A stretch of DNA of 64,000 bases from an uncultured Phycisphaerales bacterium (lineage in GTDB: Bacteria > Planctomycetota > Phycisphaerae > Tepidisphaerales > Tepidisphaeraceae), in the NCBI GenBank assembly GCA_963755915.1, contig CAVWLP010000003.1:64001-128000 (forward strand), given 5' to 3'. Numbering within the stretch: position 1 is the stretch's first letter; every line of letters begins with the position of its first letter. The notes below the pieces were generated by a model. It was not told the origin of the DNA. It saw nothing but the letters and a program-made list of their open reading frames with translations, and made no database searches. A program made the translations under genes and the position numbers. Positions 3,382 to 36,908 of this stretch are shown piece by piece.

Positions 3382-3413
3382 GACGTCTCGTTATCTAACA
3401 ATAAGGAAAGATT

Positions 3414-6893: not shown

Positions 6894-6911
6894 ACAAGAA
6901 AGTAGACCCAT

Positions 6912-9428: not shown

Positions 9429-9459
9429 TCATACCGTTCGCAGAAGCTGAAAGATCAGG

Positions 9460-10356: not shown

Positions 10357-10360
10357 GACG

Positions 10361-10975: not shown

Positions 10976-10987
10976 AGAAATGAGATT

Positions 10988-12231: not shown

Positions 12232-12322
12232 CTCGTCAAAAGCGGCGGCCTTGATTACCATGCCTGACGAGCGGATTCTCTGATGATGTGATTCGGATGT
12301 GGGACGAAAGCTGCTAGGAATT

Positions 12323-12505
12323 CTTCCCCTAAACTTCCCCTTTTTTATGCAGAATGAGCTTGTCTTGCCGCTCATGCAGAGTACAATTCAACCGGTGTTA
12401 AGGCTCTGCCTACACGGGAATTAAACGTAAATTCCGGGTTCAGCTAGATTTGCTGATTTTGGGTCATTTCTGACTCATAACCATACGGTCAAATCCACGA
12501 ATCCT
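12323..12505 (+). repeat. Island end (arm region) plus degenerate tRNA-Met 3'-half copy
   Basis: 12323-12482 aligns without gaps to 24360-24519; CTCATAACC-atac-GGTC-aaatcca-CGAATCCT stays in register with the tRNA fragment at 24511. Confidence 0.85.
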
Positions 12506-12730
12506 GATTCTCCTTTCGAAAACGAAGTTTCTCCGTCTCAAATCCAAACCCGCATAGGGGAAGAATGGGGGAAACCTGTCGAAGCAGCTAATTGAGACAT
12601 ATCAGAACTGTCATAAGCGCCTTCAGTTACAATTGAATTGAGAGACGCGGCGATGTTCGACCATCGGGTTCTCAACCCGGAGGTCAACATCTTCTTTTGA
12701 AGTAAGAAAACGCCGATTGTTGAGCCGTAG

Positions 12731-14323
12731 TTAAGATGAACTGGCGCAATCCTGTGCATCAAAATAAAGTTGCTCGGCGAATATAGAAATTCCGTAATAT
12801 CGAAAATCAACGAGCATCTGCACCGTCGCCGCAATTGCATCATGGTGAGAAGAAACACCACCGGGATCGTGAATGAATTGCAGATCGGGCTGGATGCTGA
12901 ACCAGGCATTGAGGCGAATCTTGTAGAAAGTCTCCACAGTAAGTTCCCCGCGTTCGTTGAATCCGGAGCCGGGAGCGTCGCTGAAACGGAGGTAGCTGGC
13001 GCCAAGGCCCAGAACATCGGAATCGCGCGAAGCTAGAGGTCCGGTCCATCTCAAGCCACCCCCAATCTGATAATTGGCTGCGCTGATTGCCGGATTTGCG
13101 TATCCCGCGAGGGCAAATATGGCGATCCCCGGTGCGGTGTCCTCCCCGTCCGGGGTCCTGCGCCACAGCGTCTGGTCTAAGGTCAGATACGGACCAGTGG
13201 CACCGTTTTCGGTGCCTCCGTCAAACCGATCAAACATGCCGGTATGATGCCAAATTCCGAAACCCAGCCGACCATCCCGCTTTCCCGGACCGGTCCAGGT
13301 TGCACCGATTTCACCAATCCAGAACTGGCTGGGATCATCGAAGATGTGGGCTGGTCCCAGCGATCCGGTATCGGCGCCCTCCAGTTCCGACCCATCATAA
13401 ACGCCGATTCCGGCATACACATGAGAGGTAGGATTTACGAACAATTCCGCGCCAAATGCCGGATCAGGATCCGTGGGGAAATGAAGGATTGTGGGGCTAT
13501 AGCTGGCAAAATCATTCAAAAACTCCCCTCCGTTGGCAACGAACGCAAACTCGGTATTGGCATCGATCTTTCCAAGTCTTATACGTAGTTTGTCATCGAG
13601 CATTTTTTGTTCATACCAAATCTCCGAGATTTCGGTTCGGTCGGGAGCATATAGGTGAGAGCTCGCTCCGAATGAGCCGTCCAGCGAGCGATCGTGCAGC
13701 CCGTTCTGATTCCTGAAGTTGATGAATAGCGTTCCACCATCGTAGCCGACGAGCTTTTTGCTATCGAGCGTGATGTTAATATTGAGGAGGTAGGCCTCGC
13801 CGAGAGTGTGCGTATCGGCACCACCCGTAAGATTCTTGCCCAAATAGGCTGCGAACCCACCTGCAAAAGTGATCCCATGATCTTCAAGCTTTGGTCTTAA
13901 GCCACCCCAGTCATCTGTCAGCCGCGCCCATTCCTGTGGCGGCCTGCCAATTTCAGTGGCTTGTGGTGCCGCTATGTGCCGGTCAAGCGATTGCGGCGGC
14001 TGAATTTCGCCAGACTTACTATTCTGAGTGGTTGGCAGAATTGGGTGTTGTCGGACGGGCTGTGCTGGCGGTACAGCGCTCATCCGTGTTGTCGGCGATT
14101 CGGGATGTTGGGGAAGCGGCTCCCCCGGTCGAATTGTCGGCGCTAGACGGCTCTCCTTGTCAATACTGGGTTTGTCGAAGCCGCTAATGGAAAATCTCGG
14201 GACTGCTGCGCGGCTTTTTTGAGGGATATGTGCATCAGCAAAAAAGAACTTGGCAACGCCGAACGCTGCGATAATGGCAATGGGCGTTGAAGCCAGTGCG
14301 ATTTTTCGGCGTTTGTTGCTCAT
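12731..14323 (-). CDS. OprB-family carbohydrate-selective porin with Pro-rich N-terminal extension
   Basis: LTDDWGGLR..LEDHGI, EIWYEQ, RLGKID...EF, ETFYK, IQPDLQFI.DPG. Confidence 0.88.
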   Translation of the reverse strand: MSNKRRKIALASTPIAIIAAFGVAKFFFADAHIPQKSRAAVPRFSISGFDKPSIDKESRLAPTIRPGEPLPQHPESPTTRMSAVPPAQPVRQHPILPTTQNSKSGEIQPPQSLDRHIAAPQATEIGRPPQEWARLTDDWGGLRPKLEDHGITFAGGFAAYLGKNLTGGADTHTLGEAYLLNINITLDSKKLVGYDGGTLFINFRNQNGLHDRSLDGSFGASSHLYAPDRTEISEIWYEQKMLDDKLRIRLGKIDANTEFAFVANGGEFLNDFASYSPTILHFPTDPDPAFGAELFVNPTSHVYAGIGVYDGSELEGADTGSLGPAHIFDDPSQFWIGEIGATWTGPGKRDGRLGFGIWHHTGMFDRFDGGTENGATGPYLTLDQTLWRRTPDGEDTAPGIAIFALAGYANPAISAANYQIGGGLRWTGPLASRDSDVLGLGASYLRFSDAPGSGFNERGELTVETFYKIRLNAWFSIQPDLQFIHDPGGVSSHHDAIAATVQMLVDFRYYGISIFAEQLYFDAQDCASSS

Positions 14324-14429
14324 GCCAACTTTCCGCTTCCATCGTCGACCGTGGATGCGCACCGTCCGCGCGACGGAGGCCCGCCTTGTAAATTTGGTGA
14401 AACACGACGATCAGACGTGATCGAGAAAC

Positions 14430-15362
14430 TCATCCCGAACTGCCGGCGGGCACGATGACAGGAGATTCTTCCGCTCCCTTGGACGAATGCACTCGATTCC
14501 GTCCAGCGTTCTTCGCCGCATACATTGCGCGATCGGCCGCTTCAACCAAAGTATCGCTACCGGCCGTCGCAAGATCGGATACTCCGAAACTCGCCGTTAT
14601 TTTCAGTTGTCCATTTCTGTAAGGTAGCGAGGTCGATTCCAACTCGTTGCGGACCCGTTCGGCGAACGCCGTTGCCTGTTCTAGGGATGTCCGGGGGAGG
14701 AGAGCGACGAACTCCTCGCCGCCGTATCGACACACGATGTCTTCAGCACGTGCTGAGTTTCGGAAGATACGACCGACCTGCCGCAGAACCTCGTCCCCGA
14801 CCGCATGCCCGTAGCGGTCATTGAATTGCTTGAAATGGTCCACATCGGCGATCACGCACGCCAACGACGAAGTCCCGTGTCGCTTGTTGCTGGCCAGTTC
14901 GGCGGCCAACCGCTGATCGAAGTAACCTCTATTACGCACTCCAGTGAGCCCGTCGATCATCGCTTGGTGCGACAAGAGGTCGATCAGTTCTTTGGTGCGT
15001 AATGCCGAGCGAACACGGGCCTTCAGTTCCGCCGGATCGCAGGGTTTGGTGACATAATCGACTGCGCCCAACTCCAATCCTTGGATTTTTTGTGCCGAGT
15101 CGGCTTCTGCGGTCAAAAAGATGACGGAAATGTCTTTTGTTCGGGCATCGGCCTTGAGGATGCGACATACTTCCCATCCATCGGGCTTGGGCATTTCGAT
15201 ATCGAGTAGAAGCAAGTCAGGCAGGAGTTTACCTGCCATGTCCAAGGCCTGTTTTCCATCGTACGCAGAGTGGATTTCGACCGGTTCTTCGGCCAGGTGG
15301 GTGCGCACCAAGGCATGAATCATTTTGACATTATCAGCAACAAGTACCTTATGCTTGTCCAT
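14430..15362 (-). CDS. REC-GGDEF diguanylate cyclase response regulator
   Basis: Receiver (LLDIEMP, DYVTKP) plus DGLTG..NR, DVDHFK..ND, RAED I-site and RYGGEEF. Confidence 0.93.
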   Translation of the reverse strand: MDKHKVLVADNVKMIHALVRTHLAEEPVEIHSAYDGKQALDMAGKLLPDLLLLDIEMPKPDGWEVCRILKADARTKDISVIFLTAEADSAQKIQGLELGAVDYVTKPCDPAELKARVRSALRTKELIDLLSHQAMIDGLTGVRNRGYFDQRLAAELASNKRHGTSSLACVIADVDHFKQFNDRYGHAVGDEVLRQVGRIFRNSARAEDIVCRYGGEEFVALLPRTSLEQATAFAERVRNELESTSLPYRNGQLKITASFGVSDLATAGSDTLVEAADRAMYAAKNAGRNRVHSSKGAEESPVIVPAGSSG

Positions 15363-17775
15363 CCGATGCCTCCACTGCATGGCGGCTTTGTTCGTCGAAT
15401 CCTTCGACACACTGAATTGCTTCGATTAACCCGCGAACCTTACTTTCGATTTCCACCATTTCGCAGGCAGATTTCGCCCGGTTCCCCAAATCCGCTGCGA
15501 TATCAGTCAACGGCCGGAATCCGAGGCCGCCGGCTGTTCCACGTATGTCATGCAGCTCTCGGCGAAGTGCCTCAATATCTCTCTCACGCATCGCTGCTTC
15601 CAGACGCTCAACCTGCGCGGGGAGTCCCTCAACATATTCTTGAATCAACTCGTGGTACTTTGGCTCGCCTGCTAGAGTGCTGCGCAATGACTGAGAGGGA
15701 GATGACGAATTAGCGATGGCGGGCAGTGCGTTTACCAAGCGCGGTTCCGCAACACATTTGGATATCGTATTGCCAAGCTGACCGAGCGATTCCGCGATCG
15801 TCTCTAGAAGTAGTTTCCGCTCGATAGGTTTGGGCACGTAGCCGGTGCAGCCCGCCTGCAGGCATTTAGCTCGGTCGTCGCTCATTGCGTGCGCGGTCAG
15901 TGCGATGATCGGCAGGCGACAACCCCGTTTGCGCAGTTCCGACGACGCCGTATAGCCGTCCATTTCCGGCATTTGCATGTCCATCAGGATTAGATCAAAT
16001 TGCTGCCGTTGAAACAGGTCCAACGCGATTCGACCATTTTTCGCGACGGTTACGGTAGCGCCGGCTTCGCTCAACAGCAGGGTAATTAACTTTTGATTCT
16101 CCGGACCATCCTCCGCGAGAAGAATGCTGCAATTCAACGTAAACTGCTGACTGACGGCCGGTTTGGAAGACTGCACGACCAGCATCGATTCATTAAGTCC
16201 ATGCAGCATTTCGACGCCTGCAATGGGACCACCGTCGATTGTGATTCGGAAGCAACTTCCGACATTGGCCACTGATTCAACAACCAAGTCGCCCCCGAGT
16301 AGCTCTGTCAGGCGCTTACTGATGGTCAATCCCAGTCCGGTTCCTCCGAATCGGCGCGTCGTCGAATCGTCAGCTTGCGTAAACGGTTGAAACAAGCGGG
16401 CAAGTTGCTCGCGGGTGATACCAATGCCGGTGTCGATAACTTCCAATGTGACGATGCTGGATCCATCTTTTATTTCGCAGTCAACGCGCAGCCGTACTTC
16501 GCCGCGTTCGGTAAATTTGATCGCATTACCAAGCACATTCATCAGGATTTGCTTCACGCGCAATGGATCGCTGTGGATCACACGGGGAATTGTGTTGGCG
16601 AAGGTCAAATGCAAGGCTAACCCCTGGGCGATGGCGCGTGGGCGCAGCAGGGAGACCACCTCAGCGGTGACCTGGGGCAGATCCATCTCGATCCGCTCCA
16701 CGGTCATCTTGTTCGCCTCAATCTTGCTAATATCAAGAATGTCGTTGATGAGATCAAGCAGATGCCTGCCGCTCCGATGGATGATCTGCAAACCCTCGGC
16801 GTGCTCGCCAAAATTCTCCTTGCGCTCCAGCAGCCGTTCGGCATAACCCATGATGGCGGTCATGGGGGTCCGGATCTCGTGGGACATATTCGCCAGGAAT
16901 GTGGATTTGGCATGGCTGGCCGCTTCGGCGCGGTCTGCGGCTTGGACGAGCTGCATTTGCGAGGTGGCCAGGCTTTCAGCCATCTGGTTAAATGTGCCGG
17001 CCAAGTCAGTTATCTCGTCCTTGCCTTCGACGCTGATACGTGCCGCCAGATCACCGCTGCCTAGTTGGCTGGCCTTAGTTCGGACTTCGTACAGTCGCCG
17101 CCCGAGGGGTCCGGCAGTCATCAAGGCGATCATTGCAGTTAGCGCGACTGCCACTGCTCCAACGACCACAACGATGAACCATTGCACGCCCACGCTTTTA
17201 GCCGTCTCGGCGAGGGTATCGGAGATTTCGGTTCTCGCCCCTTGTTGCAGATCGAGCGCTTTGGATACCAACCGGTGATTTTCTACGTCATTGAGCCGTA
17301 TTAACTCGCTATCGACTTTTCCCTGTTGTTCTAAGCTGGCACAAATTGCGTCCCAATTTCGCTGCAACTTCGCGCGGTCAGCATCCAATTCATCAATCTG
17401 CGCTATATGCTCTCTTTCTTCTCGAACCTCATCCTGGTTATCCGCAGCTTTCAAAATTCCGTCCGACTCATCTCGTAGTCCGCCAATTGCATCAGCCAAG
17501 CTTCGGAAATCGTTGGCAATCTGGCCCTTTGCGGCCTGAACTTCGGCGGTTTGTTTGTGGTCAATTGCGTCTACGAACTCGTCGATCTTCGCATCCAGCA
17601 CCACAGCCGACTCCGCAGCCAGGCTCGTGTCTTTCACTTCGCGAAGTGTCGTGTCGATTGTCTCGCGCAAGGAGCCGGCGGTGACCGATAAGCTGTGAAT
17701 GCTAAATGCACCGACGACGGCAACGGAGATCGCTGAGCTGACGAAGCCGAGATAAAGTTTTTTTTGAATTGTCAT
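15349..17775 (-). CDS. Hybrid sensor histidine kinase (periplasmic sensor-HAMP-HisKA-HATPase-REC-Hpt)
   Basis: Two TM segments, DEITDLA..FN.M, FLANMSHEIRTP, GGTGLGL, DMQMP, C-terminal LHDIRGTAG. Confidence 0.93.
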   Translation of the reverse strand: MTIQKKLYLGFVSSAISVAVVGAFSIHSLSVTAGSLRETIDTTLREVKDTSLAAESAVVLDAKIDEFVDAIDHKQTAEVQAAKGQIANDFRSLADAIGGLRDESDGILKAADNQDEVREEREHIAQIDELDADRAKLQRNWDAICASLEQQGKVDSELIRLNDVENHRLVSKALDLQQGARTEISDTLAETAKSVGVQWFIVVVVGAVAVALTAMIALMTAGPLGRRLYEVRTKASQLGSGDLAARISVEGKDEITDLAGTFNQMAESLATSQMQLVQAADRAEAASHAKSTFLANMSHEIRTPMTAIMGYAERLLERKENFGEHAEGLQIIHRSGRHLLDLINDILDISKIEANKMTVERIEMDLPQVTAEVVSLLRPRAIAQGLALHLTFANTIPRVIHSDPLRVKQILMNVLGNAIKFTERGEVRLRVDCEIKDGSSIVTLEVIDTGIGITREQLARLFQPFTQADDSTTRRFGGTGLGLTISKRLTELLGGDLVVESVANVGSCFRITIDGGPIAGVEMLHGLNESMLVVQSSKPAVSQQFTLNCSILLAEDGPENQKLITLLLSEAGATVTVAKNGRIALDLFQRQQFDLILMDMQMPEMDGYTASSELRKRGCRLPIIALTAHAMSDDRAKCLQAGCTGYVPKPIERKLLLETIAESLGQLGNTISKCVAEPRLVNALPAIANSSSPSQSLRSTLAGEPKYHELIQEYVEGLPAQVERLEAAMRERDIEALRRELHDIRGTAGGLGFRPLTDIAADLGNRAKSACEMVEIESKVRGLIEAIQCVEGFDEQSRHAVEASDGQA

Positions 17776-18074
17776 CTTGTCAATTTCAGGACTGGTAAAA
17801 TCTCGGCGCACGATAGGCATGAATGCGCCTGAAACGTAGATCGGCACAAAACTGCGCGTATTTACGGCAGTCCAGATTAGATAAGACAAAGTGAGTTTAT
17901 TCTTTAGTTCTGTCGAAAGAAGTTATCCCAAGCCACTTCAGGGGTGCACCTTTTCATCCGATAAAGTCGAAAGCCGGCATCCGATTTTAGCAATGGCGCG
18001 ACGGTCATGACATTCATGACGGGCCGCATTATTCCATAGTTCTGAGTCGTGACGAATCGAACTGGTGATCCGCA

Positions 18075-18637
18075 ATGACGATGAAGCAGAAAATTCTTGG
18101 CGTATTTCTTGGATCATCGATGCTAGTGGCGATGGTGGGTTGTCTGGCGGTGATAAGCCTATTTCATCTTGACAGAACATTGGTCCCCTTCAGCAATATC
18201 GAGATACCACAGATCTCTGAGGCCAACGCGATGGGAAGTGCCACGGTTGAACTCCACCGCAGTGTTGAGCAGTACGTTCGAGCCAAGCACGACCGGCGAG
18301 ATAACGATATTGTGACGCTCAGAGCACGGATTAATTCTGAATTCGATCAGATCACCCAGATAAGCAGTCAACTTCAAGACACGGTGGAATTTCAGTCTGG
18401 CCACTCGGTTTCCGGAAGTGACGATTACAAGGATGCCGAAAAGGACCAGAAGGATCTCAGAACAATCGACGATCAAGTGCAGTCGTTGCGTCGCGATTGG
18501 CGGGAGTTGGATTCACCTGCTGAAAATCAGCCGAATGCTGATCATGATCAGTTGCTCCGCACAAGAATGGATACGACGGCGTCGGGGCTCCTGGAGTCTA
18601 CGTTGGCCTTTCAACGCGGAGCCAACTCGGGAGCTGT
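18075..18637 (+). pseudogene. Truncated membrane sensor protein (TM plus helical periplasmic domain) cut by IS66 remnant
   Basis: N-terminus resembles that of the divergent hybrid kinase; frame runs straight into tnpB sequence with no second TM or kinase domain. Confidence 0.6.
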
Positions 18638-18948
18638 CTCCTTGCGGGCGTGCGTATCTGGCTAGCGACGGCAGCGGTGGATGGCCGCAAGGGATTCGAC
18701 ACGCTGTGTGGCATCGTGCGCCAAGCGCTGGGGCACAATCCCCTGTCCGGGGACATGTTCGTCTTTCGTAACCGCTCGGGTGCGAGGGCAAAAATTATCT
18801 TTTGGGATTCCAACGGACTGGTTCTTTACGCAAAGAGGTTAGAGAAAGGAACGTTCCGCTGGCCGGCGGCCGGCGAGTCCTCCATCGCGCTCAGCAGGCG
18901 CAGCTGATGGATCTGCTGGCCGGGCGAGAAGTGAAATCGATGGCATAA
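18638..18948 (+). pseudogene. tnpB: IS66 accessory protein TnpB, 5'-clipped, frameshift ~18895
   Basis: RIWLA...VDGRKGFD.L, FVFRNR, WDSNGLVLYAKRLEKG.F.WP. Confidence 0.85.
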
Positions 18949-18996
18949 AATTCATTGCAATATTCCGGTGGACCGCGCGTATTATGCGGCAGAGTC

Positions 18997-20607
18997 ATGG
19001 ACGACACGGCCCTCCTGGAACTTCCCGACGACCCGATCCTCCTTAAGCGCCTGATCGTCGAGCGCGACCAAACCATTGCCCAGCGCGACGAATCAATCCA
19101 GCTCCTGAACCAGGACAACCAACTCTTACGTCACCGCCTGGCGGCGCTGCTGCGAAGCAGCTACGGCCCTCGGGCCGAGCGCTTTGATCCCCGGCAACTG
19201 CTGCTCTTCGGCCTGCTGGTGCCCAGGATTGAATTTCTGTCGCCAGCGTCTCCTTCCCGATCCAAATCGCCCAACCGTTCCAAGCACGGTCGTCAGAAAC
19301 TTCCCGATCATCTGCCACGCCTGCCCATCGAGCACGACCTGGATGAATCGGAAAAGGCTTGCCCCTGCTGCGGCGAGCAGCGTCAGTGCATCGGCCAAGA
19401 GAAAAACGAACAGCTGGAGCACCTTCCATCGAACTTCGTAGTCCTGCAGCACATCCGCCATAAATACGCCTGCCAGCATTGCAATTCAGGACATTGCCAG
19501 AAGTGCGATGGCAACGCTCATATCGATCTGGCCACCAAGCCCCAGCAACCGATTGAAAAGGGAATGGCCGGTCCGGGACTCCTGGCGTACGTGGTGACCA
19601 GCAAGATGGCGGACCATCTGCCGCTGTACCGGCTGGAACAGATCTTCGCCCGACAGCAGGTGAATATCAGCCGCTCAACGCTGTGCGGCTGGATCGCGGC
19701 GGCGGCGAGGGTGGTCGAGCCGTTGTACAAGCTCATGTGCGACCGCGTCTGCCAAAGCGATGTCATGCATACGGACGACACGACCGTGCCGGTCCAGCAC
19801 GAAGGGCATTGCCGGCAGGGACGGTTGTGGACGTACTTTGGGAACGGGTGCCATCCCTATATTGTATATGACTACACACCGACGCGTTCTGGCCAGGGCC
19901 CGCTGGCGTGGCTGGGATCATGGAAAGGGTTCCTGCAGGCTGACGCCTACGCCGGCTATGACAAGCTGTTCGCGCAAGGCGATGTGACGGAGGTTGCCTG
20001 CTGGGCTCACACGAGACGCAAGTACTTCGACGCCCAGGAATCGGACATCGCCAGATCGCTCTGGATGCTGCAGATGATCCGCCGATTGTACGCGGTGGAG
20101 AAAGAAGCGGCCGACCGCGATGGGCCAACACGCCTGGTTCTACGGCAATCGCGATCGACGCTGATCCTGGAGCAAATCCGCTTGTGGCTCGTCGAGCAGC
20201 AACCACGAGTGTTGCCCCGCAGTCCCATTGCCCAAGCCATCGGCTACACGCTGAACCAATGGGCAGCGCTGATCATCTACACGACCGATCCTCGCCTGAG
20301 CATAGACAACAACGTGGCCGAACGCGCCCTGCGTCGGGTTGCAGTGGGAAGAAAAAACTGGATGTTTACCGGGCACGACGAATCGGCTCAGGGCCACGCG
20401 ATCCTGTGGTCGCTGATCGCCAGCGCTCAGCGTCACGAGATCGACGTGCAGTTTTACCTCCGTAGCGTGCTGGCCCATTTGCCGGGTCTGCCGCCTGATG
20501 AATTGCAAAACTACCTGCCCGACGTGTGGAAGCGCGACCTGATGGCCGAGCAGCAGGCGAAGCTCAACGCCCATCACGAGACTTTGGTTCGAGCCATCAT
20601 CCGGTGA
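18997..20607 (+). CDS. IS66 family transposase TnpC
   Basis: CPCCG, KMADHLPLYR, HTDDT, LQADAYAGY, CWAH.RR, IDNN.AER. Confidence 0.95.
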   Translation: MDDTALLELPDDPILLKRLIVERDQTIAQRDESIQLLNQDNQLLRHRLAALLRSSYGPRAERFDPRQLLLFGLLVPRIEFLSPASPSRSKSPNRSKHGRQKLPDHLPRLPIEHDLDESEKACPCCGEQRQCIGQEKNEQLEHLPSNFVVLQHIRHKYACQHCNSGHCQKCDGNAHIDLATKPQQPIEKGMAGPGLLAYVVTSKMADHLPLYRLEQIFARQQVNISRSTLCGWIAAAARVVEPLYKLMCDRVCQSDVMHTDDTTVPVQHEGHCRQGRLWTYFGNGCHPYIVYDYTPTRSGQGPLAWLGSWKGFLQADAYAGYDKLFAQGDVTEVACWAHTRRKYFDAQESDIARSLWMLQMIRRLYAVEKEAADRDGPTRLVLRQSRSTLILEQIRLWLVEQQPRVLPRSPIAQAIGYTLNQWAALIIYTTDPRLSIDNNVAERALRRVAVGRKNWMFTGHDESAQGHAILWSLIASAQRHEIDVQFYLRSVLAHLPGLPPDELQNYLPDVWKRDLMAEQQAKLNAHHETLVRAIIR

Positions 20608-20631
20608 GGATGTGGTTGTCCCAGCGTTGAC

Positions 20632-22166
20632 TTACCGAGTGCTGGGTTGGGTATGAATATCTTGAATCTCACCTCTCTGAAGCGGTGAGCGGACAACCTC
20701 CAAAGCGGACGGAATCACTTTGCCATTAGTAGAAGATGACGGATACGTAAAAGGGGTTCGAACGCTTTTTCCGTTGACTTGGGCGACAAAGATCAGCCCA
20801 TAGGCATAGTTGCTGGATTGCGTGGGATATTGCACGGCGTACGTGACATTGCTTGGACCGTTACTTCCGACAATCATTTTGACATCTGGATTAGGCTGGC
20901 CTGTGCTGTGGCCAACGCCGTCGAACTTCGCGATCGTTTCCCACGGACCAATAGACCCGGAAAAGTAGAGGGTCGCGTTGGGCGTGCCATAGAAGAGCTT
21001 TCCGAACAAAAGTTCATGAACAGTCTTGCGCTGCTGGGATTCAATTTAGTTCTCCAGAACCAGGGCGTCTTGTCCGTCGCATCTTCGAACGAGAAATACC
21101 CAAATCCCTCGCCTGCGGGCAGCCGAATCTCGCAAGCCGCAACGCATTCCGTGCCCGGTTTGAGATCATGTTCGGCAGACTGGGTTGCGGGAAACGGCGT
21201 GCTCAGGAGCGTGCCGTTCGGAAACCATCGCGGCCCTGAGTTGCTCGAAGCGAGACGAATCGAGTCCACTTTGAATTCCATACCGTTGGCCAGATGGATT
21301 GCATAGGTACCCGACCAACTCGACGTGCCGCTAGGCCGCGATGTCGGGAGGGTCAGGGGCATTCCAGTTGGCGTCGCGGGAATTGACGGCTGTAACCATT
21401 GAATGAGGAACGTCCCGGTTCCGGCGCCGGCAACGGTGACGGCGGCCAGCACCATTGCGGCGATTTTGGCGTTCGTCCAATACATGGCTTGACCCGCCTT
21501 TCGGGCGATTGCGCTCACGAGAGTTCCTTTTGCGACGGACGTGCCGGTGAAGGCGATTGTTTCGGCCAGCTTGGCCGGAGCGGCCTCCGATCCCCGAGCC
21601 GCCAACTGCGTCGCCAGCACCGCCACCGAGGGAACGGCCCCCTTGATCGCCAGGGTCGCTCTGAGCCGGGCAACGGCGCGGCTGACTCGTTTTTCCGCGG
21701 CCTTGGCGTTGATGCCTAGAGCCACGCCAACTTGCTCGAGGCTGAATCCGCGAAGGTATCGCAGAGCGACGGCGTCGCGGTCGGATGCCTTCAATTCGGC
21801 CATCGCATCGTCCAGGATCGGCGCATAGGTTTCCCACAGCGGTTCATCTGAGTCGCCGGCTCGCTCGGGCCGCATGAAAGCTGCCTGCCTTTCGTGATAT
21901 TCGCGTCGCGCGGCGAGTTTCCTGGCATCGTGCGCGGCGAAGTGAGTGGCGGTAAGAAGCCACCCCGCCAGTGGACCCTTGACACTGGCCGCCTTGCGCG
22001 ACAAGAGCAGGAAGACCACCTGGGTGACATCTTCAGCCAGATGAGAATTGCCAAACTGCCGCCGAGCCGCCGAATAGACCAGATCGATGTTTTGTCTCAC
22101 GATTTGTGCAAACGCGTCCGTTGAGGATTTTGACAGATAGGCGGATAAGAGTTGGCGGTCATCCAT
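20632..22166 (-). pseudogene. Planctomycete-type membrane-anchored ECF sigma-70 factor, frameshift ~21030, 3'-truncated by IS66
   Basis: DRQLL, AF..IV....LVYSAARR, AEDVTQ.VF, region 4 KRVSRA..RLR, TM segment; final stop comes from the IS66 terminal GTAA. Confidence 0.8.
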
Positions 22167-22233
22167 GGGACAGGTCTGCATTCATATAGTAATGGACGAA
22201 ACATCGCGAAGGCGACAGCCTATTGGGTCGCGG

Positions 22234-22330
22234 ATCGGGGTAGAGAAGGCTGGTTGATCCCGGCCTCCCCTCCCGCCGAACCGGACGGGCGGGTTTCCCG
22301 CATCCGGCTCTCCGGTTGGTGATTCTCCGC
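22234..22330 (-). mobile_element. Group II intron 3' remnant (domains V and VI)
   Basis: Minus strand GAGCCGGATGCGGGAAACCCGCCCGTCCGGTTC (D5, AGC triad, GAAA loop), then GGCGGGAGGGG...TCTACCCCGAT (D6, bulged A, AY end); no RT ORF nearby. Confidence 0.88.
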
Positions 22331-22453
22331 TTTCGCGGATTGACAGGCCAAGTTATTGAATTCGCTGATCGCGATTTGTTGGTTTTCACAGAAAATATTG
22401 GTTGAAAGAGAACGGCAGCCCACCTTAAGGCATGCGGTTGGCGGAACGAATAC

Positions 22454-23412
22454 GAACAAATCACAGCGTCCGAGCCCGGAGGAGTGGCGTCAGATTATTG
22501 ACCAGCATCGGACCAGCGGGATGACCGTGGCACGGTACTGTCGTGACCGGGGAGTCACCGAGTGCTCCTTCTACAACTGGAAAAAGAGATTGCGTGGTGC
22601 GTCGCCAACGCGACCGAAGCAATTGTCCGCACGAGCGTTCGTTCAAGTCACTCCGTCGAATCCGGCAAAGACAGATGCTATAGAGATTCTCTTGCGCGGC
22701 AGCGGTCGTTTACGGGTCGGTCCGGGATTTGACCACCAATTGCTATTGGATCTGATTCAGACGCTGGAGGCTCTGGCGTGATTGGCGTGGTGGTCGGCAA
22801 CCAGATCACGCGAGCCGGCTGCTGGGCGCACGCGCGGCGGAAGTTCGTTGATGCCGAGAAGACGCAGCCGGCCATCGCGGCGGAGGCGGTGGCGATGATC
22901 AGGCGGCTGTGCGCCGTCGAGGACCGAACCAAGGCGTTGGACATTGGGGGACGCCTGGCACTGCGCCAGCAGGAATCGGCGTCGATCTTGGCGGCGTTGA
23001 AAGACAAGCTGCACGCCTGGCGGGATCAATTGTTGCCCAAGCATCCGATGGCCCAGGCCGTGGCGTATACCCTGAACCAGTGGACGGAACTGAACGTGTT
23101 CGCCGGTGACGGGGCCGTGCCGATCGATAACAACGTGAGTGAATGCGAGATGAAGCGGATTGTGTTGAACCGGAAGAACAGTTTGTTCGTGGGCAACGAG
23201 CGAGGCGGCCAGACTGCGGCAATCCTTTCCAGCCTGACCAGCACTTGCCGCCGGCACGGCATCGATCCACAGCGATATCTCACACAACTGCTGACGAACC
23301 TGCCGGCCACGCCAATCAGTCAACTCGAGCAATGGCTGCAGGACCAATGGAAGCGGAGAAACCCGGTGCCGTCAGGGTAGGAAGCGGGATACGCGGCGGA
23401 CAGACAAGTTAC
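22454..23412 (+). mobile_element. Internally deleted IS66 (tnpA joined to tnpC 3' end)
   Basis: TnpA motifs (W..II..H..SG.TV..YCR..GV..SFYNWKKRL) followed directly by the TnpC C-terminus (CWAHARRKF, IDNN, RKNSLFVG); TTAC at 23409-23412. Confidence 0.82.
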
Positions 23413-23471
23413 GCTGCTGCACATAACCGTCGATAACTCTTGAGACGACCCCCCAACAACGGAGGCGGATA

Positions 23472-24278
23472 GTGAACACTGAACTCAATGCCTGGGGAGT
23501 TCTGCGAAAGCTGACCTGGCATCATGTGCTGATGGTGGCGGCCACGATCGTCATTGCTCGCGTGCTGATCTACCTGCTGCGACTGCTCTTGCATCGCGCT
23601 GCCGAATCGACTGCACCGCGCTTTCGTCTAACCGTTCTCCGTGTCGTGCCGATCGTACACCTGCTGATTGGAATCGCGACGATCGCCGTGATTGTGCCAA
23701 TCGTTGTCGAGCCCACTTTTGCCAACGTCGTCACCCTCATCGCCAGCGTCGGCCTGGCTTTGGCGTTCGCGCTCAAAGACTATGCCAGCAGCCTGGCCGC
23801 CGGACTCATCACCATCCTGGAACACACCTATCAATCCGGCGACTGGATCGAAGTGGACGGCGCCTACGGCGAAGTAAAATCCATCGGCGTGCGCGCCGTT
23901 CATCTTCTGACGGTGGACGACACCGAAGTGATCGTCCCACACTCGCGGCTCTGGTCGGCCAGCATCCACAACGCCAGCAGCGGCAGCCGAAGCCTCCTTT
24001 GTGTGACGGACTTCTATCTTCACCCCGATCACGACGCGACGCTCGTCCGTCAGCAACTGGAAGAGATCGCTGAATCAAGCTCCTACCGCAAGCCGGGAAC
24101 GGCCGTCACCGTGATCGTGTTGGAGAAACCGTGGGGAACGCACTATCGCGTAAAGGCGTACGTTAAAGAGAGCCGCGAGCAATTCCTCCTCATCTCGGAT
24201 GTGACGATCCGCGGCAAGCAAGCGCTTCGCCACTCCGGCATTCAATTTGCCCAGGCCACTTACGCGGAAACGGCATAA
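23472..24278 (+). CDS. MscS-family mechanosensitive channel
   Basis: RBS GGAGG; GLALAFALKD, GDWIEVDG.YGEV..IG.R. Confidence 0.9.
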   Translation: MNTELNAWGVLRKLTWHHVLMVAATIVIARVLIYLLRLLLHRAAESTAPRFRLTVLRVVPIVHLLIGIATIAVIVPIVVEPTFANVVTLIASVGLALAFALKDYASSLAAGLITILEHTYQSGDWIEVDGAYGEVKSIGVRAVHLLTVDDTEVIVPHSRLWSASIHNASSGSRSLLCVTDFYLHPDHDATLVRQQLEEIAESSSYRKPGTAVTVIVLEKPWGTHYRVKAYVKESREQFLLISDVTIRGKQALRHSGIQFAQATYAETA

Positions 24279-24359
24279 CGGCTCCGCCGTCCACACACTT
24301 TAACGTGGGATGCGGTTGACGCACCGCTCACGATAATTGGTGCTTCTGATCGTGGCGAG

Positions 24360-24510
24360 CTTCCCCTAAACTTCCCCTTTTTTGAGCCGAAAGTGCTTGT
24401 CTTGCCGCTCGTGCAGAGTACAATTCAACTGGTGTTAAGGCTCTGCCTACACGGGAATTAGACGTAAATTCTGGGTGCAGTAAGATTTGCTGTTTTTCGG
24501 GCAAATCCAA
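24360..24510 (+). repeat. Island end (arm region), second copy
   Basis: 151 bp colinear with 12323-12473, starting with tandem CTTCCCC units and abutting the tRNA core. Confidence 0.88.
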
Positions 24511-24552
24511 CTCATAACCCGGAGGTCGTAGGTTCGAATCCTACCCCCGCTA
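24511..24552 (+). other. 3' half of initiator tRNA-Met (attR-like fragment, not a functional gene)
   Basis: CTCATAA anticodon loop, CCCGG, AGGTC, T arm GTAGG-TTCGAAT-CCTAC, acceptor strand CCCCGCT-A; 5' half absent. Confidence 0.9.
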
Positions 24553-24556
24553 TACG

Positions 24557-24589
24557 AACGGCCTTGGCGATATCGCCAAGGCCGTTTTT
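24557..24589 (+). terminator. Terminator-like palindrome after the tRNA fragment
   Basis: Perfect 30-bp palindrome AACGGCCTTGGCGAT/ATCGCCAAGGCCGTT (24557-24586) plus T run. Confidence 0.8.
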
Positions 24590-24699
24590 CGTGATTGACC
24601 TGGTTATGAACATCCGACTCAGCGGCTGTATCCAACAGATCTCGGCTGATGAGTTGCCGAGTGAGCGTTTACGCTACCATTGCCTGCACCGTCCTTTCC

Positions 24700-24881
24700 C
24701 GTTCGGCAGTTCGACTGGTTCGAGCAGCGCCATGAATTATCTGCTTGAGGAACTCAAAGAGCATCATCCCGATCTGGCCAAACTCGTCATTGGCTCGGCG
24801 GTGGTGAACGCGCAACATATGAGCGAAGATCAGTTGCTCGCCCAGGCCAGAGCGTTTTATGCTGAGCATTCTCGAAACTGA
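24700..24881 (+). pseudogene. 3' fragment of a small hypothetical gene upstream of xfp
   Basis: Protein-like stretch FGSSTGSSSAM..LL.EL...HPDLA...EDQLLAQARAFY without a credible 5' part; family recognised from memory only. Confidence 0.45.
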
Positions 24882-24908
24882 AGTGGCTTCTCAAATCAGG
24901 AGCATTCG

Positions 24909-27269
24909 ATGACGGAAAAGACTTCGCCGGACGTTCTCCGCAAGATCGACGCCTACTGGCGAGCGGCGAACTACCTTTCCGTGGGGCAGATTTATCTGCG
25001 CGATAACCCTCTGTTGCGCGACCCGCTGAATCTGACGCACGTGAAGCAGATGTTGCTCGGTCATTGGGGCACTACGCCGGGGCAGAATTTCATTTATGCC
25101 CATCTGAATCGGATCATCAAGCAGTACGACCTCGACATGATTTACGTCTCGGGCCCGGGTCATGGCGGCCCAGCGCTAGTCGCGAATACGTATCTTGAAG
25201 GCTCTTACACAGAGATCTATCAAAGCATCACGCAGGATGAAGCCGGCCTGAAGAAACTGTTTAAGCAGTTCTCGTTTCCCGGTGGAATTCCCAGCCATGT
25301 TTCGCCGGAATGTCCGGGTTCCATCCATGAAGGCGGTGAGCTCGGATATTCGATCAGCCATTCGTTCGGCGCGGTGTTCGATAATCCGAATCTGGTCGTT
25401 GCCTGCGTCGTCGGCGATGGCGAAGCCGAGACCGGCCCACTCGCGACGGCATGGCATTCGAACAAGTTCCTCAACCCGATCACCGACGGCGTGATTCTGC
25501 CGATTCTGCATCTCAACGGATACAAGATCGCAAATCCCACGATTCTCGCCCGCATATCGCGCGAAGAATTGACGAAGCTGTTGGAAGGCTATGGCTGGGC
25601 CCCGTACTTCGTCGAAGGCCATGAGCCGGAACTGATGCACCGCGCGATGGCGGATACGCTCGATACCGTTGTCAAACGAATCAAACAGATTCAACAAAAC
25701 GCCACAGAAAACGGCGTCGCGATACGCCCCACCTGGCCGATGATCGTGCTGAAAAGCCCGAAGGGGTGGACCGGGCCGAAGGAGGTCGATGGCGTGCCGA
25801 ATGAAGGAACATTCAGAGCACATCAAGTACCCCTGTCCGACCCGGCCAAGAATCCAGCCCATCTGACTCAGCTCGAAAGCTGGCTGAGAAGCTACAAGCC
25901 CGAAGAACTATTCGATGAACACGGCAGGCTAAATCCAGAACTCGCCGAACTCGCCCCTGTTGGCTCGCGCCGGATGGGCTCGAACCCGCACGCGAACGGC
26001 GGCGTGCTTCTGCGCGATCTGCGCATGCCGGATTTTCGCGACTACGCCGTCGACGTTAGGTCACCGGGCATTACGACCGCCGCCGACACGCTCGTCCTCG
26101 GCAGTTTTCTGCGCGATGTCGTAAAGATGAATGAAGATCAACGGAACTTCCGCCTGTTCGGTCCCGACGAGACGCTTTCCAATCGGCTCGACGTCGTCTT
26201 CGAAGCGACGAACCGGCAGTGGGAAGCCGAGACCCAAAAGAACGATCAATTCCTCGCCCCCACTGGCCGAGTAATGGAAATGCTCAGTGAGCACCAATGC
26301 GAAGGATGGCTGGAAGGCTATCTGCTCACCGGCAGACACGGCTTATTCAACTGCTACGAAGCGTTCATCCACATCATCGATTCGATGTTTAACCAGCACG
26401 CCAAGTGGCTGAAAGTCACTTCCGGCTTGCCCTGGCGACGTCGGATCGCGTCGCTGAATTATCTCCTCGCCTCGCACGTATGGCGGCAGGATCATAATGG
26501 CTTCACGCACCAAGATCCGGGATTTCTCGATCATGTCATCAACAAGAAGGCCGAGGTTGTGCGCGTATATCTGCCGCCCGACGCCAACTGCCTCCTGTCG
26601 GTGATGGACCACTGCCTCCGCAGCCGGCACTACGTGAACGTCGTCGTGGCGGGCAAACATCCGGCCCCGCAATGGCTGTCAATGGACGCGGCGTTTCGCC
26701 ATTGCAGCGAGGGCGTCGGCATCTGGGAATGGGCCAGCAGCGATCGCGGCGCGACGCCTGATGTCGTGATGGCCTGCGCCGGCGACGTGCCAACCCTCGA
26801 AACGCTGGCGGCGGTCTCAATCCTCCGCAAAGCTTTGCCCGAGCTTAAAATCCGCGTCGTAAACGTGGTCGACTTGATGAAACTTCAGCCAAGCACCGAG
26901 CACCCGCACGGCCTGAGCGACCAGGACTTCGACTCACTCTTCACCAAAGACAGGCCTGTCATCTTTGCCTTTCACGGCTACCCGTGGCTGGTCCATCGGC
27001 TGACCTATCGCCGAACCAACCATCACAACCTGCACGTACGCGGCTATAAGGAAGAGGGAACGATCACCACGCCGTTTGACATGACAGTGCTGAATGACCT
27101 CGACCGATTCCACCTTGTACGCGACGTGATCGATCGCTTGCCACAGTTGGCCGGTAAGGGCGACTATTTGAAACAGGAAGTCGCAGAGAAACTCATTGAG
27201 CACAAGCATTACATCCGCCAGTTCGGCCAGGATCTGCCTGAGATTCGAAATTGGAAGTGGAGCTTGTGA
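24909..27269 (+). CDS. xfp: Phosphoketolase, copy 2 (intact)
   Basis: [51 protein letters not shown]. Confidence 0.96.
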
Positions 27270-27276
27270 GGCAAGA

Positions 27277-28503
27277 ATGTCCAACCGTGCTGACAACATT
27301 GCAGGGCATGCTGGCCAGCCGTTGGTTCTTACCGTGAACGGCGGCTCGTCCAGCATTAAATTCGCCGTATTCGAACTGACCCCAGCGCTGGAGCGACGGC
27401 TTTGCGGAGAAATTCAGCGGATAGGCGGACCGGGCACACAACTGATCGCCAAATGGAAAGACGAGGAACGCGAAGAAGTTCGCGCCGTCGACGCCTCCAA
27501 CTTCGACCGCGCCACGAAAACGCTGATCGAATATCTCCATGAACGCGTAGGCCCAACGTCCATCAAAGGGATTGGCCATCGAATAGTTCACGGCGGCGCC
27601 AACTTATTCGAGCCTCAACTCGTCGCACCTGAACTGATCGAGGAATTACGGAAAATCCAAACGTTGGACCTAGCCCATCTGCCAACCGAAATTTTGCTCA
27701 TCGAAGTGTTCGGCAAAGCCTTCCCCTCGCTGCCGCAGGTAGTGTGTTTCGACACGGCCTTCCATCGGGAGATGCCAACGGTCGCCCGCCTGCTTCCGAT
27801 TCCCCGCCGCTATCTCGACGCGGGCGTTCGGCGATTCGGCTTCCATGGCCTCTCGTACACCTACCTCATGACCCGCCTCGCCGAAGTCGCCGGCGAAGAC
27901 GCCGCCAACGGCCGAGTCATCCTCGCCCACCTCGGTTCCGGCGCGAGCATGGCCGCCGTCCACAATCGAAAGCCGATCGACACGACCATGGCCTTCACTC
28001 CCACCGCCGGGTTGATGATGGGTACTCGGCCCGGCGATTTAGATCCCGGGCTCCTCGTTTACTTGATGAGGCTGGACAAATTAACGGCCGATCAGATGGA
28101 CGACCTGATCTCTCACCAGTGCGGCCTGCAAGGCGTGTCCGACACAAGTTCCGATATTCGTGATTTGCTTAGAGCCCGCGCTACAGACCCCCGCGCGGCC
28201 GAGGCCGTCGATCTCTTCTACTACCAAGCGAAAAAATTCATCGGATCGTTGGCCGCAACCTTGGGCGGTCTCGATACGCTGATTTTCGCCGGCGGAATCG
28301 GCGAACATTCGCCGGAGGTGCGCCAATCAATCTGCGCCGGTCTGTCGTTTCTCGGCATAGCACTCGATACAAGCAAGAATGTCGAAAATCGCGACATGAT
28401 CTCCGCGACGACTGGCAGAGTCACGGTGCGTGTGATTGCGACCGACGAAGAAGCCGTCATCGCTCAAGCAGTTTGCGATGTAATTCCTTTGTGCCCCGCA
28501 TAG
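27277..28503 (+). CDS. ackA: Acetate/propionate kinase, copy 2
   Basis: VNGGSSSIKF, GHRIVHGG, FDTAFH, GFHGLSY, FAGGIGE. Confidence 0.94.
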   Translation: MSNRADNIAGHAGQPLVLTVNGGSSSIKFAVFELTPALERRLCGEIQRIGGPGTQLIAKWKDEEREEVRAVDASNFDRATKTLIEYLHERVGPTSIKGIGHRIVHGGANLFEPQLVAPELIEELRKIQTLDLAHLPTEILLIEVFGKAFPSLPQVVCFDTAFHREMPTVARLLPIPRRYLDAGVRRFGFHGLSYTYLMTRLAEVAGEDAANGRVILAHLGSGASMAAVHNRKPIDTTMAFTPTAGLMMGTRPGDLDPGLLVYLMRLDKLTADQMDDLISHQCGLQGVSDTSSDIRDLLRARATDPRAAEAVDLFYYQAKKFIGSLAATLGGLDTLIFAGGIGEHSPEVRQSICAGLSFLGIALDTSKNVENRDMISATTGRVTVRVIATDEEAVIAQAVCDVIPLCPA

Positions 28504-28708
28504 GCAACACCCATATATTGGAGTTGTCCTTGGCCGAACCACTGAATGTCACTGTGGACTGCGGTTCAGACCAATGGGCTCAGAGTGGAATTCAGATGGC
28601 CTGCTCGTCAGTGGTGGTGTAAGCCACATTCGCAGCTAATCTCTCAAGCCGCCCGCCGAAAACAAACCCAAAACACCACTTTGACAAGGCGACGGGTAAT
28701 ATAGCGAG

Positions 28709-28758
28709 CCCCTGCTATACGAACGGCCTTGGCGCTGGCACCAAGACTGTTTTTGTTT
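28709..28758 (+). repeat. Eroded copy of the tRNA 3' end plus terminator (outermost island border)
   Basis: CCCCTGCTATACGAACGGCCTTGGCG matches 24544-24569 at 25/26 nt, followed by a decayed right arm and T run. Confidence 0.8.
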
Positions 28759-28917
28759 GCATACCTTGGGAGGAAATCTTCAATTCTTTGCTTCCCACAG
28801 CACGGGGCAGGGGTGAGTTCGGTAAATCCCTCGGTCTGTCTGGGCCGACAAACATTTTGTCGCGGCTGGTGTCGCACTTTTCGGGGTTCATTCAGCCAAA
28901 TCTACAGCAGATGAAAC

Positions 28918-32106: not shown

Positions 32107-32131
32107 ATAAACGCTCCCCTGCGGATCGCCC

Positions 32132-33880: not shown

Positions 33881-33986
33881 TGCGAGGGTTTCATTGGTTT
33901 AGCCCGCAGAACTTGCGAAGCGACTAATTGTAATCTGATTCCCGGGTAATGAGAATCCAGGAATTTTCAGGAGGCGGAAAAAAGGC

Positions 33987-36738: not shown

Positions 36739-36908
36739 TTTGCGCCTTTGCGATTTGATGGATCGATTTTGCGGGGGGTGCGGCCGGCGGATACGCGCAC
36801 ACAGCAAAATCGCCCGGAATCCCGAAACAGAAATGCTAAAGCTGCGGGCGGGAGGGGTCAAGGCAGAGCGAAACGTGGAGAGGCTGGATGATGAGGAGTT
36901 TTAAGCGT

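Follow-up and report, generated by a model that had tools for sequence, protein, structure and literature searches.

A probable array of integrative elements at the initiator tRNA-Met gene of a Tepidisphaerales-type planctomycete

Introduction

In the part of a review of integrative and mobilizable elements (IMEs) which bears on our subject, an integrative and conjugative element (ICE) or an IME is described as decaying to a cis-mobilizable element (CIME) that retains its attachment (att) sites, and accretion as the integration of a newcomer into a resident element's att site (PMC5704250). The part of the Islander survey used here counts 3919 islands, 2083 of them with an anticodon-centred attP, together with 125 tandems of at least two and four of at least three, and defines an island by a regenerated intact tDNA and a displaced tDNA fragment in direct orientation on the same replicon (PMC4383910). 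The present work concerns a stretch of 64,000 nucleotides (nt), hereafter the window, of an uncultured Phycisphaerales bacterium (GenBank assembly GCA_963755915.1, contig CAVWLP010000003.1, here C3; the window is C3:64001-128000, forward strand). We put at about 0.8 the probability that three seams in it are the rightmost of an array formed by the accretion of integrative elements at the initiator tRNA-Met (tRNA-fMet) gene of this Tepidisphaerales-type planctomycete. Each seam, or junction, forms the right end of an island (islands 1 to 3, from left to right); the first two are preceded by an arm of one family, named X_B, and the third by an arm of another, X_C.

As far as the same review describes ICESt1/ICESt3-type accretion in Streptococcus thermophilus (PMC5704250), the locus resembles it in having one integrase-bearing conjugative element followed by att-flanked segments without integration or transfer genes, all in direct orientation at one target gene, with decayed genes and insertion sequence (IS) elements inside. 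It differs in its planctomycete host, in its initiator tRNA target and in the use of two crossover places in the same tRNA by different arm families. Set beside Islander islands as the cited part presents them (PMC4383910), it likewise shows a displaced 3' tDNA fragment at each island end and an integrase of the tyrosine recombinase type; in the sublocations of that survey, the identity block of X_B starts in the anticodon loop (site A) and that of X_C at the T/acceptor junction or the 3' end (site J). Unlike Islander islands, no regenerated intact tDNA is present in this assembly of three contigs, and only one of the three islands reaching into the window (island 1) has an integrase.

The assembly, a metagenome-assembled genome (MAG), consists of contigs of 93 kb, 5.0 Mb and 1.5 Mb (59% GC; 6.6 Mb searched in total) and is rated 81% complete with 8% contamination. 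Relatives are referred to by G numbers, and contigs by C numbers.

Results

Junctions in the window

A preliminary description, made from the letters of the window, had placed three tRNA-Met-derived junctions in it. Repeat search, direct count and sequence reading confirm the coordinates of all three, which consist of the following features.

12323-12473, forward: arm X_B copy 1, P-arm-like right end of island 1 (repeat search, alignment)
12474-12515, forward: core CTCATAA (12474-12480) and degenerate tRNA-fMet 3' half (direct comparison)
12516-12685, forward: conserved left-end module of island 2 (sequence reading; kept in G053 and G001)
24360-24510, forward: arm X_B copy 2, right end of island 2 (repeat search, alignment)
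24511-24552, forward: displaced initiator tRNA-Met 3' half, positions 32-73, anticodon loop to discriminator A (sequence reading)
24553-24589, forward: terminator, a perfect 24-nt palindrome GGCCTTGGCGAT/ATCGCCAAGGCC (24560-24583), then GTTTTT
28648-28708, forward: arm X_C, divergent copy, right end of island 3 (alignment with six other X_C arms)
28709-28754, forward: core CCCCTGCTA (final acceptor-strand nucleotides) and degenerate terminator copy, right limit of the foreign block

The repeat search pairs 12323-12505 with 24360-24542 (84% over 183 nt), and by direct count the two 151-nt arms are identical at 132 of 151 positions in the same register, as had been claimed. Directly after each arm stands CTCATAA, the anticodon loop of initiator tRNA-Met. 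Copy 1 begins with an arm-type direct repeat, CTTCCCCT-AAA-CTTCCCCT (12323-12341), and carries a promoter-like TTGTCT-16-TACAAT at 12360-12387; in copy 2 these two features occupy 24360-24378 and 24397-24424, respectively. The half at 24511-24552 reads CTCATAA-CCCGG-AGGTC-GTAGG-TTCGAAT-CCTAC-CCCCGCT-A, that is, anticodon loop, 3' strand of the anticodon stem, variable loop, T arm, 3' strand of the acceptor stem and discriminator, and its sole difference from the intact tRNA-Met(CAT) genes of relatives is a compensated T-stem pair (GTAGG/CCTAC vs GGAGG/CCTCC). The degenerate half at 12474-12515 retains CTCATAACC and agrees with that at 24511-24552 at 25 of 42 positions overall. ARAGORN calls no tRNA gene in the window, as expected since only half genes are present. 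The terminator type of 24553-24589 is also found behind the intact tRNA-fMet of G003, G013 and G052.

X_B adjoins a tRNA half in G001 (twice), G015, G051, G053 and the unpublished genome G014, at 83-94% identity and next to cargo that is unrelated, G051 excepted. When six X_B copies from five genomes are aligned, the similarity starts exactly at a 19-mer, CTTCCCCTAAACTTCCCCT, which forms the first 19 nt of both arms in the window, and the DNA to its left is unrelated except in G051. That genome provides a natural recombinant partner: G051:C3:6691-9173 is 100% identical to window 10000-12482, which takes in a broken ackA gene, X_B and CTCATAACC, and right after CTCATAACC G051 goes on into a good tRNA half that has a different terminator, and the present genome into the degenerate half and island 2. 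This divergence puts the exchange inside the anticodon loop or at its edge. The arm of a further family found left of the window (X_A, described below), X_B and the tRNA 5' half all part ways immediately left of C32 of CTCATAA.

The degenerate half is shared as well, since G053 matches window 12323-12680 at 94% and G001 matches 12323-12685 at 81%, and past about 12680 neither continues with DNA related to the window. The shared stretch includes an inverted arm-like repeat at 12557-12573, GGGGAAG-AAT-GGGGGAA. We infer that elements of the island-2 type have 12474-12680 as their conserved left end.

The integrase and an attP-like layout

On the strand of the junctions, C3:30848-32119, some 33 kb before the window begins, encodes a 423-aa tyrosine integrase (PF00589, E 6e-14), with the R..HxxR..Y motifs legible in its translation as LRREE, RHTFGS and RRHY. 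The preliminary description had expected both an integrase and the intact tRNA on that side; the integrase is there, but the adjoining tRNA sequence is only a 3' half (C3:30774), with X_A before it. Downstream of this half come a terminator hairpin, then the 19-mer at +114, and the integrase. In the whole assembly exact copies of the 19-mer occur only at C2:27325, C3:30888, C3:76323 and C3:88360, and an inverted copy with one mismatch at C3:31321. All of these copies, four exact and one near, lie at tRNA-fMet-derived junctions, and chance is therefore excluded.

Relatives of the integrase, sought in a collection of 185,579 species genomes, were found at 14 loci (44-94% identity), the nearest being in MAGs of uncultured Phycisphaerales, Tepidisphaerales and Tepidisphaeraceae. 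A tRNA-fMet half stands about 74 nt upstream at ten of the 14 (nine intact tRNA genes and one X_A junction); three others have an X_C junction and one is a fragment. The 19-mer lies at the identical offset in 11 of the 14 loci, and an inverted copy within the integrase gene in 11. One locus, L084, assigned to Methylococcaceae bacterium isolate 8, has a 79%-identical integrase behind a tRNA-fMet of Tepidisphaerales type, 5' half included; this looks like a planctomycete contig inside a gammaproteobacterial assembly rather than a cross-phylum transfer.

Joined via the core, X_B, CTCATAA, the replacement half, terminator and 19-mer of C3:30781-30906 and the integrase make up, as read from the sequence, a complete attP-like layout with arm-type repeats on either side of the core. 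In the attP of a lambda-type heterobivalent integrase, arm-type sites flank the core. The candidate layout resembles it in its direct 8-mer repeat with 11-bp spacing, placed on both sides of the core, about 150 bp to its left and about 114 bp to its right, with a further inverted copy at about +548; unlike in the lambda-type system, no excisionase gene was identified. A genome-wide PF00589 scan gave 24 matches, none of them between C3:32044 and 152203.

Initiator tRNA-Met as the target

The tRNA-half pattern, with two mismatches allowed, was searched in 31 genomes of the genus, family and class and is present in 28 of them, this genome included. Flanks were inspected for 46 of the 51 half matches in 27 relatives, the remaining five being those of G014. 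Twenty-six proved to be intact tRNA genes with the 5' half CGCGGGGTAGAGCAGCCTGGTAGCTCGTCGGG before CTCATAA, and 20 to be junctions with unrelated DNA left of CTCATAA; among the matches examined, 26 of the 27 matching relatives have an intact gene. Initiator tRNAs are marked by a CAU anticodon, three G:C pairs at 29-31:39-41, a 1:72 mismatch and A11:U24. The intact genes of the relatives, which ARAGORN labels tRNA-Met(cat), have C1 opposite T72, the anticodon stem TCGGG/CCCGG and the D stem GAGC/GCTC with A11:T24, and the window half holds the 3' strands of the initiator features. The target is the initiator tRNA-Met.

Same-strand series of an intact gene and junctions were found in G012:C18 (gene at 15418, junctions at 76756 and 132605), G010:C5 (65543; 13344) and G015:C303 (8046; 1040). 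Co-oriented series on single contigs of several relatives mean that island stacks at the initiator tRNA-Met are common in the lineage. The series of G015 encloses a 7-kb island (locus L068, G015:C303:1040-8108) between the intact tRNA-fMet and an X_B junction; it has no integrase and carries a TOTE-type conflict system (AEP primase-helicase and SWIM protein).

The third junction

The preliminary description had taken the islands ending at the three junctions to be related. This applies to the first two, which share X_B; the third belongs to the X_C family, with its crossover at the acceptor 3' end. Island 3 is bounded by a 46-nt direct repeat (24544-24589 and 28709-28754; 39 of 46 positions identical, 85%), the left copy of which is made of 24544-24552 and the terminator up to 24589. 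The right copy comprises the last 9-10 nt of the tRNA and the terminator, with a terminator-like hairpin at 28728-28745. Six other arms can be aligned with the 60 nt that precede 28709, three in this genome (C2:27203, and on the reverse strand C3:550534 and C2:3577308) and three that stand before integrase loci of other genomes (L081, L086 and L088). An integrase fragment is present at C3:553.5-554.3 kb. The pattern of the arm is CCAAAACGCCACTTT and further on GACGAGTAACGTAACGG, then the junction and CCCCCCGCTA, and all seven X_C junctions end at CCCC(C)GCT(A), the last tRNA bases. On this alignment X_C is an arm family separate from X_B, and its identity block consists of the acceptor end with the terminator.

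The complete chromosome of G052 presents an intact tRNA with a terminator of GAACGGCCTTGGCG type, followed by 8.4 kb of cargo (two PAS/GAF hybrid kinases and a MEDS protein, no integrase), X_C joined to CCCCCGCTA, and an integrase element. The layout of window 24544-28754 is the same, with xfp and ackA as cargo. At 28.7 kb the GC skew shifts from about 0 on the left to +0.09, locally up to +0.24, on the right, and synteny with G001 (90-93%) starts at about 28822. An empty tRNA-fMet site beside the gene at 29027 was looked for in G001, the closest relative, and not found; there the left neighbour is an unrelated reverse-strand open reading frame (ORF) next to core DNA.

Extent of the array

The part of the array on C3 reaches from the contig start to 92754 and the left end lies outside the contig, so that the array measures at least 92.7 kb. 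It has at least five tRNA-derived junctions, all on the same strand (C3:25487, 30774, 76474, 88511 and 92709), the last three being those at 12474, 24511 and 28709 of the window. Assembly-wide there are 12 tRNA-fMet-derived junctions: C2:6928, 24852, 27243, 574776 and 3577268 (reverse), and seven on C3, namely the five just listed, 516099 (reverse) and 550493 (reverse). The half itself occurs seven times, at C3:25487, 30774, 76474 (degenerate) and 88511 on the forward strand, at C3:516099 on the reverse strand, and at C2:6928 and 574776.

X_A precedes five of the halves (C3:30563-30773, 25276-25486 and, reverse, 516100-516231; C2:6781-6927 and 571855-571985 plus 574757-574775). The five copies share a conserved TTGAAA-17-TACCAT, and a hairpin shows compensatory changes between C3 and C2 copies (GCAGTGG..CCACTGC vs CTCAGGG..CCCTGAG). 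The X_A-preceded half at C3:25487 lies 5.3 kb further left than that at C3:30774, and only two glycoside hydrolase genes are found between them. ARAGORN wrongly calls C3:30734-30816 a tRNA-Phe(aaa). A 2771-bp element of the IS21 family (IstA/IstB), near-identical in at least seven other places, interrupts one copy of X_A at C2:571986-574756.

From C3:25487 leftwards to the contig start lie metabolic genes, AbiEi, a P-type type IV secretion system (T4SS; TrbE, TrbL, VirB9 and TrbI) and a restriction-modification cluster. The start of C2 resembles that of C3, with junctions at 6928, 24852 and 27243, and the terminator at C2:6928 is that of the last junction in the G012 array.

Two other tRNA loci were noted. 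A segment of 2.9 kb (C2:3699152-3702079) holds 26 tRNA genes, 27 by Infernal, among them the only tRNA-Met(CAT) of the 5-Mb contig; and an ordinary single island occupies an elongator-type tRNA-Met at C3:160152-170489, where 160152-160224 is the intact gene, an integrase is encoded at about 160.5-161.1 kb and 170429-170489 is a partial 3' copy. The point C2:2573385-2573455, which is continuous here and has a truncated gene, was compared with G001:C2:530063 and G001:C4:953704: in G001 one side leads to the end of a tRNA-fMet array and the other to the homologue of window 28.8 kb. This difference is either a large rearrangement or a matter of binning or assembly that involves the whole 1.5-Mb contig.

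Several RNA-based explanations of the junctions were rejected. A group I intron or an intron-containing tRNA found no Rfam intron or tRNA match at the junctions, and a search of the 1.2 kb upstream of each of the seven halves for an acceptor 5' strand gave nothing but two GCGGGG matches attributable to chance; a permuted or split tRNA would need a 5' half, which is absent genome-wide at up to six mismatches in 32 nt; and the only match to a YrlA-like RNA scores 23 bits, against a gathering score of 69.

Contents of the islands

The preliminary description let its first island end at 12.5 kb, which is correct; the island itself belongs to a 45.7-kb conjugative element, island 1 (C3:30816-76505; 45,690 bp). 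Its genes comprise the integrase, RES/Xre, TrbB, TraG/VirD4, an RlxS-like relaxase, ParB, SSB and unknown ORFs. All NCBIfam scores of its transfer proteins are under the curated cut-offs, so that they are distant relatives of the named families: the relaxase reaches 359 bits (E 6e-107) against a cut-off of 850, TrbB 289 against 305 and TraG 516 against 674. The names RlxS, TrbB_P and IncP-type TraG are presumably those assigned to ICEMlSymR7A/Tn4371-like elements, which are conjugative and have P-type Trb transfer genes. Island 1 resembles these elements in its RlxS-like relaxase, TrbB, TraG, ParB, SSB and tRNA-targeting tyrosine integrase; unlike in them, the scores are sub-cut-off and TrbE, TrbL, TrbG and TrbI are not within the island. 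Before the window it has a glycogen and sugar block (a split phosphorylase, a PGM fragment and a debranching enzyme) that continues into the window as follows (Pfam assignments).

1-12322, forward: right-hand cargo of island 1
1-1542, forward: GH15 glucoamylase
1570-2955, forward: MFS sugar transporter
3619-5841, forward: phosphoketolase (xfp)
5823-6893, forward: class-I aldolase
6912-9428, forward: P-type ATPase, broken into three frames
9460-10356, forward: PPK2
10343-10975, forward: histidine phosphatase
10988-12231, forward: acetate kinase (ackA), broken in two

A paralogue of this operon lies at C2:2136812-2148913 (81-84%), and the nearest copy is that of G011 (88-89%). To judge by the sequences, the operon would fit an acquired, redundant and decaying copy.

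The contents of island 2, of 12,047 bp, and of island 3, of 4,202 bp, are as follows (Pfam, with Rfam for island 2).

12686-24359, both strands: cargo of island 2
12731-14362, reverse: OprB porin
14430-15410, reverse: response regulator-GGDEF
15349-17889, reverse: hybrid histidine kinase
18955-20607, forward: IS66 transposase
20874-22181, reverse: sigma-70-like ORF
22234-22312, reverse: group II intron domain V-VI remnant (Rfam)
22778-23380, forward: IS66 fragment
23472-24278, forward: MscS channel
24590-28647, forward: cargo of island 3
24909-27269, forward: phosphoketolase
27196-28503, forward: acetate kinase

The metabolic or signalling character attributed to the cargo at the outset is borne out by these Pfam contents. 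No integrase, relaxase or T4SS match was found in islands 2 and 3 by Pfam or by the PF00589 genome scan. Island 2 ends in the core with the degenerate half and the inverted arm-like repeat on the left (12474-12573) and in X_B with the half on the right (24360-24552); island 3 ends in the two 46-nt repeats, with X_C on the right. On sequence evidence, both thus combine att-type ends with a lack of integration and transfer genes, which is what distinguishes a CIME.

The foreignness of the islands was assessed against 12 genomes of the genus. None of these has islands 2 and 3 in synteny, which disposes of the objection that the block might be core DNA kept in relatives. Matches to island 2 are found at IS66 (57-67 kb for the IS66 fragment), the sigma-like ORF and the intron remnant; otherwise there is only a 64-66% partial kinase, and 75-78% over window 15794-15999. 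The sigma-70-like ORF has DNA matches of 88-90% in three other genomes of the genus. The group II intron match scores 53 bits, above the gathering score, and stands isolated, without a reverse transcriptase. The best matches of island 3 in relatives reach 74-77% in other contexts with unrelated flanks, and an orthologous xfp-ackA locus in six relatives was rejected, as the genes match (70-77%) but the flanks do not. The GC contents of islands 1, 2 and 3 are 0.573, 0.564 and 0.571, compared with 0.595 in the flank to their right and 0.591 genome-wide.

Right of the array, about 5.3 kb of the window (32117-37372) are missing from G001 between flanks of 90-93% identity, by an insertion or a deletion, and three tandem 65-nt units, 71-74% identical and each beginning with CGGAGGCGAGGAGCGGTACTCCGCA, lie at 41961-42155.

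Discussion

In the mechanism that we propose, the heterobivalent tyrosine integrase of island 1 would recognise two kinds of site, the arm-type repeats CTTCCCCT-N3-CTTCCCCT on both sides of the core and the anticodon stem-loop, and would exchange strands within CTCATAA. The incoming element would supply its own replacement 3' half and terminator, and the chromosomal 3' half would be displaced outwards, so as to follow the 151-bp arm X_B at the far end. Repeated rounds may have stacked island 1, a conjugative element with partly decayed glycogen/phosphoketolase cargo, and island 2, which holds a porin gene, genes of c-di-GMP and two-component signalling, and IS elements. Island 3, with xfp-ackA, would have entered via a second element family at the acceptor-stem end of the same tRNA, its sites being arm X_C and the core CCCCCGCTA with the terminator. 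The core idea of the preliminary description, that tyrosine-integrase elements crossing over in a tRNA anticodon loop piled up in tandem, is thus retained. Having att-like ends and lacking an integrase, islands 2 and 3 are CIME-like passengers that could move only with help; their cis-mobilization by a neighbouring ICE, as in ICE/CIME systems, is putative.

Several observations weigh against accretion in this form. No intact initiator tRNA was found in the assembly by ARAGORN, by Infernal RF00005 (150 of 243 tRNA candidates scored) or by a 13-nt stem-loop pattern; ARAGORN reports three CAT tRNAs, none of initiator type. The 32-nt 5' half was not found genome-wide, even at up to six mismatches, and a 5'-half motif search at two mismatches returned noise only. 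Consequently, the array has no demonstrable attL carrying a regenerated gene. The missing tRNA is likely to be an assembly gap, as all but one of the matching relatives have the intact gene and both array contigs start inside island DNA. The half that adjoins the integrase is preceded by X_A and not by X_B. The PF00589 scan finds a single integrase in C3:1-152 kb, and under the strict Islander rule, by which every island needs an integrase of its own, this would not count as a tandem array. An ICE unites an integrase, a relaxase, a coupling protein and a complete mating-pair-formation T4SS in one att-bounded element; here TrbE/VirB4, TrbL, VirB9 and TrbI lie at C3:6-15 kb, outside island 1, and the conjugative element is accordingly either incomplete or rearranged. 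Simple left-side accretion would leave the outermost half more decayed than the middle one, but the reverse is seen, and the decayed half with about 175 nt is a conserved module in three genomes. Being conserved, it is not a private decay product; the rule that the outermost is the oldest and most decayed therefore fails here, and the insertion events cannot be ordered by it. Finally, in a MAG of this completeness and contamination, joins located at repeats could be chimeric. Parts of the window are contained in four soil-metagenome runs of one study, and no listed public contig piece, all of them short, spans 12482 or 24511; nor does any public contig aligned to the window show a joint jumping 12,037 or 4,165 bp, from which, the pieces being short, nothing follows either way.

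These points bear on two other explanations. The junctions may be genuinely att-derived and owe their present order to homologous recombination, inversion, translocation or chimeric bin assembly. The quality of the MAG (81% complete, 8% contaminated) and the presence of 12 tRNA-fMet-derived junctions with no intact gene speak for it, as does G001, where the array end and the 28.8-kb flank join opposite sides of the point that is continuous here with a truncated gene, and where the T4SS genes, apart from the integrase module here, follow directly after that module. Against it, the X_B-degenerate-half module and X_B with a GTAGG-type half recur in independent assemblies (G001 and G053), contigs of other public runs match 12035-12348 and 28583-28908 with zero mismatches, and the five C3 junctions are co-oriented in the direction that accretion expects; we consider such reshuffling quite unlikely as the source of the present order. 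An inversion between C3:15.2 kb and 34.25 kb was considered for the separated T4SS genes, but the T4SS segment of G001 shares only 83.5% identity with C3:9-15 kb, whereas the integrase module reaches 94%, and two further copies exist here, so that the origin of the T4SS at C3:9-15 kb from a separate, related element is at least as likely.

The arm-plus-half units might also be expressed RNA genes, each with promoter, structured leader, tRNA-like 3' domain and terminator, which would mimic a tRNA in a regulatory role or supply one of the two parts of a split initiator tRNA. Such a role would explain an assembly without an intact initiator tRNA, the promoter-like hexamers of both X_B copies, the conserved hexamers and compensated hairpin of X_A, and the different terminator hairpins that follow six of the seven halves (none was seen after C3:516099). 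The promoter-like sites are, however, no more frequent than in shuffled sequences (seven found, 7.2 expected), no 5' half exists genome-wide as a partner, and apart from the sub-threshold YrlA match (23 bits vs 69) no Rfam family matches. Moreover, relatives with the same arms own ordinary intact initiator tRNAs, and the arms stand at the positions expected of attP arms and share the repeat found on the integrase side. Expressed RNA genes are thus highly improbable, and accretion at the initiator tRNA-Met gene remains the preferred explanation.

The X_B (151 bp, with the CTTCCCCT repeats) and X_C (about 60 bp) modules are kept at 83-94% across genera around wholly different DNA, which in G015 encodes TOTE defence, in G052 PAS/GAF kinases, and in the present genome porin/c-di-GMP signalling and xfp-ackA. 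This allows the speculation, unlikely though worth stating, that the segments without integrase form a cassette system served in trans and that the initiator tRNA locus is a multi-site docking platform in Tepidisphaerales, with anticodon-loop and acceptor-end sites at which cargo could be captured or exchanged by the integrases of resident conjugative elements. Should the absence of the tRNA gene not be an assembly gap, all target copies would have been consumed (12 junctions, none intact) and the supply of initiator tRNA would be unconventional.

To our knowledge, from literature searches that were not aimed at this phylum, mobile elements of Planctomycetota are little described. The process proposed here, ICE/CIME accretion, is a known one, and the current understanding of how such elements work is unchanged. 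The locus offers a well-resolved example of it in Planctomycetota, with a defined integrase, a candidate arm-site repeat, two crossover sublocations in one tRNA and a crossover mapped within 9 nt by a natural recombinant pair. Arrays at tRNA-fMet probably break long-read metagenome assemblies of this group, so that bins may end without an initiator tRNA. The array also shows a route by which an extra phosphoketolase, an acetate kinase, a glycogen-degradation operon and signalling genes would have come into these soil bacteria.

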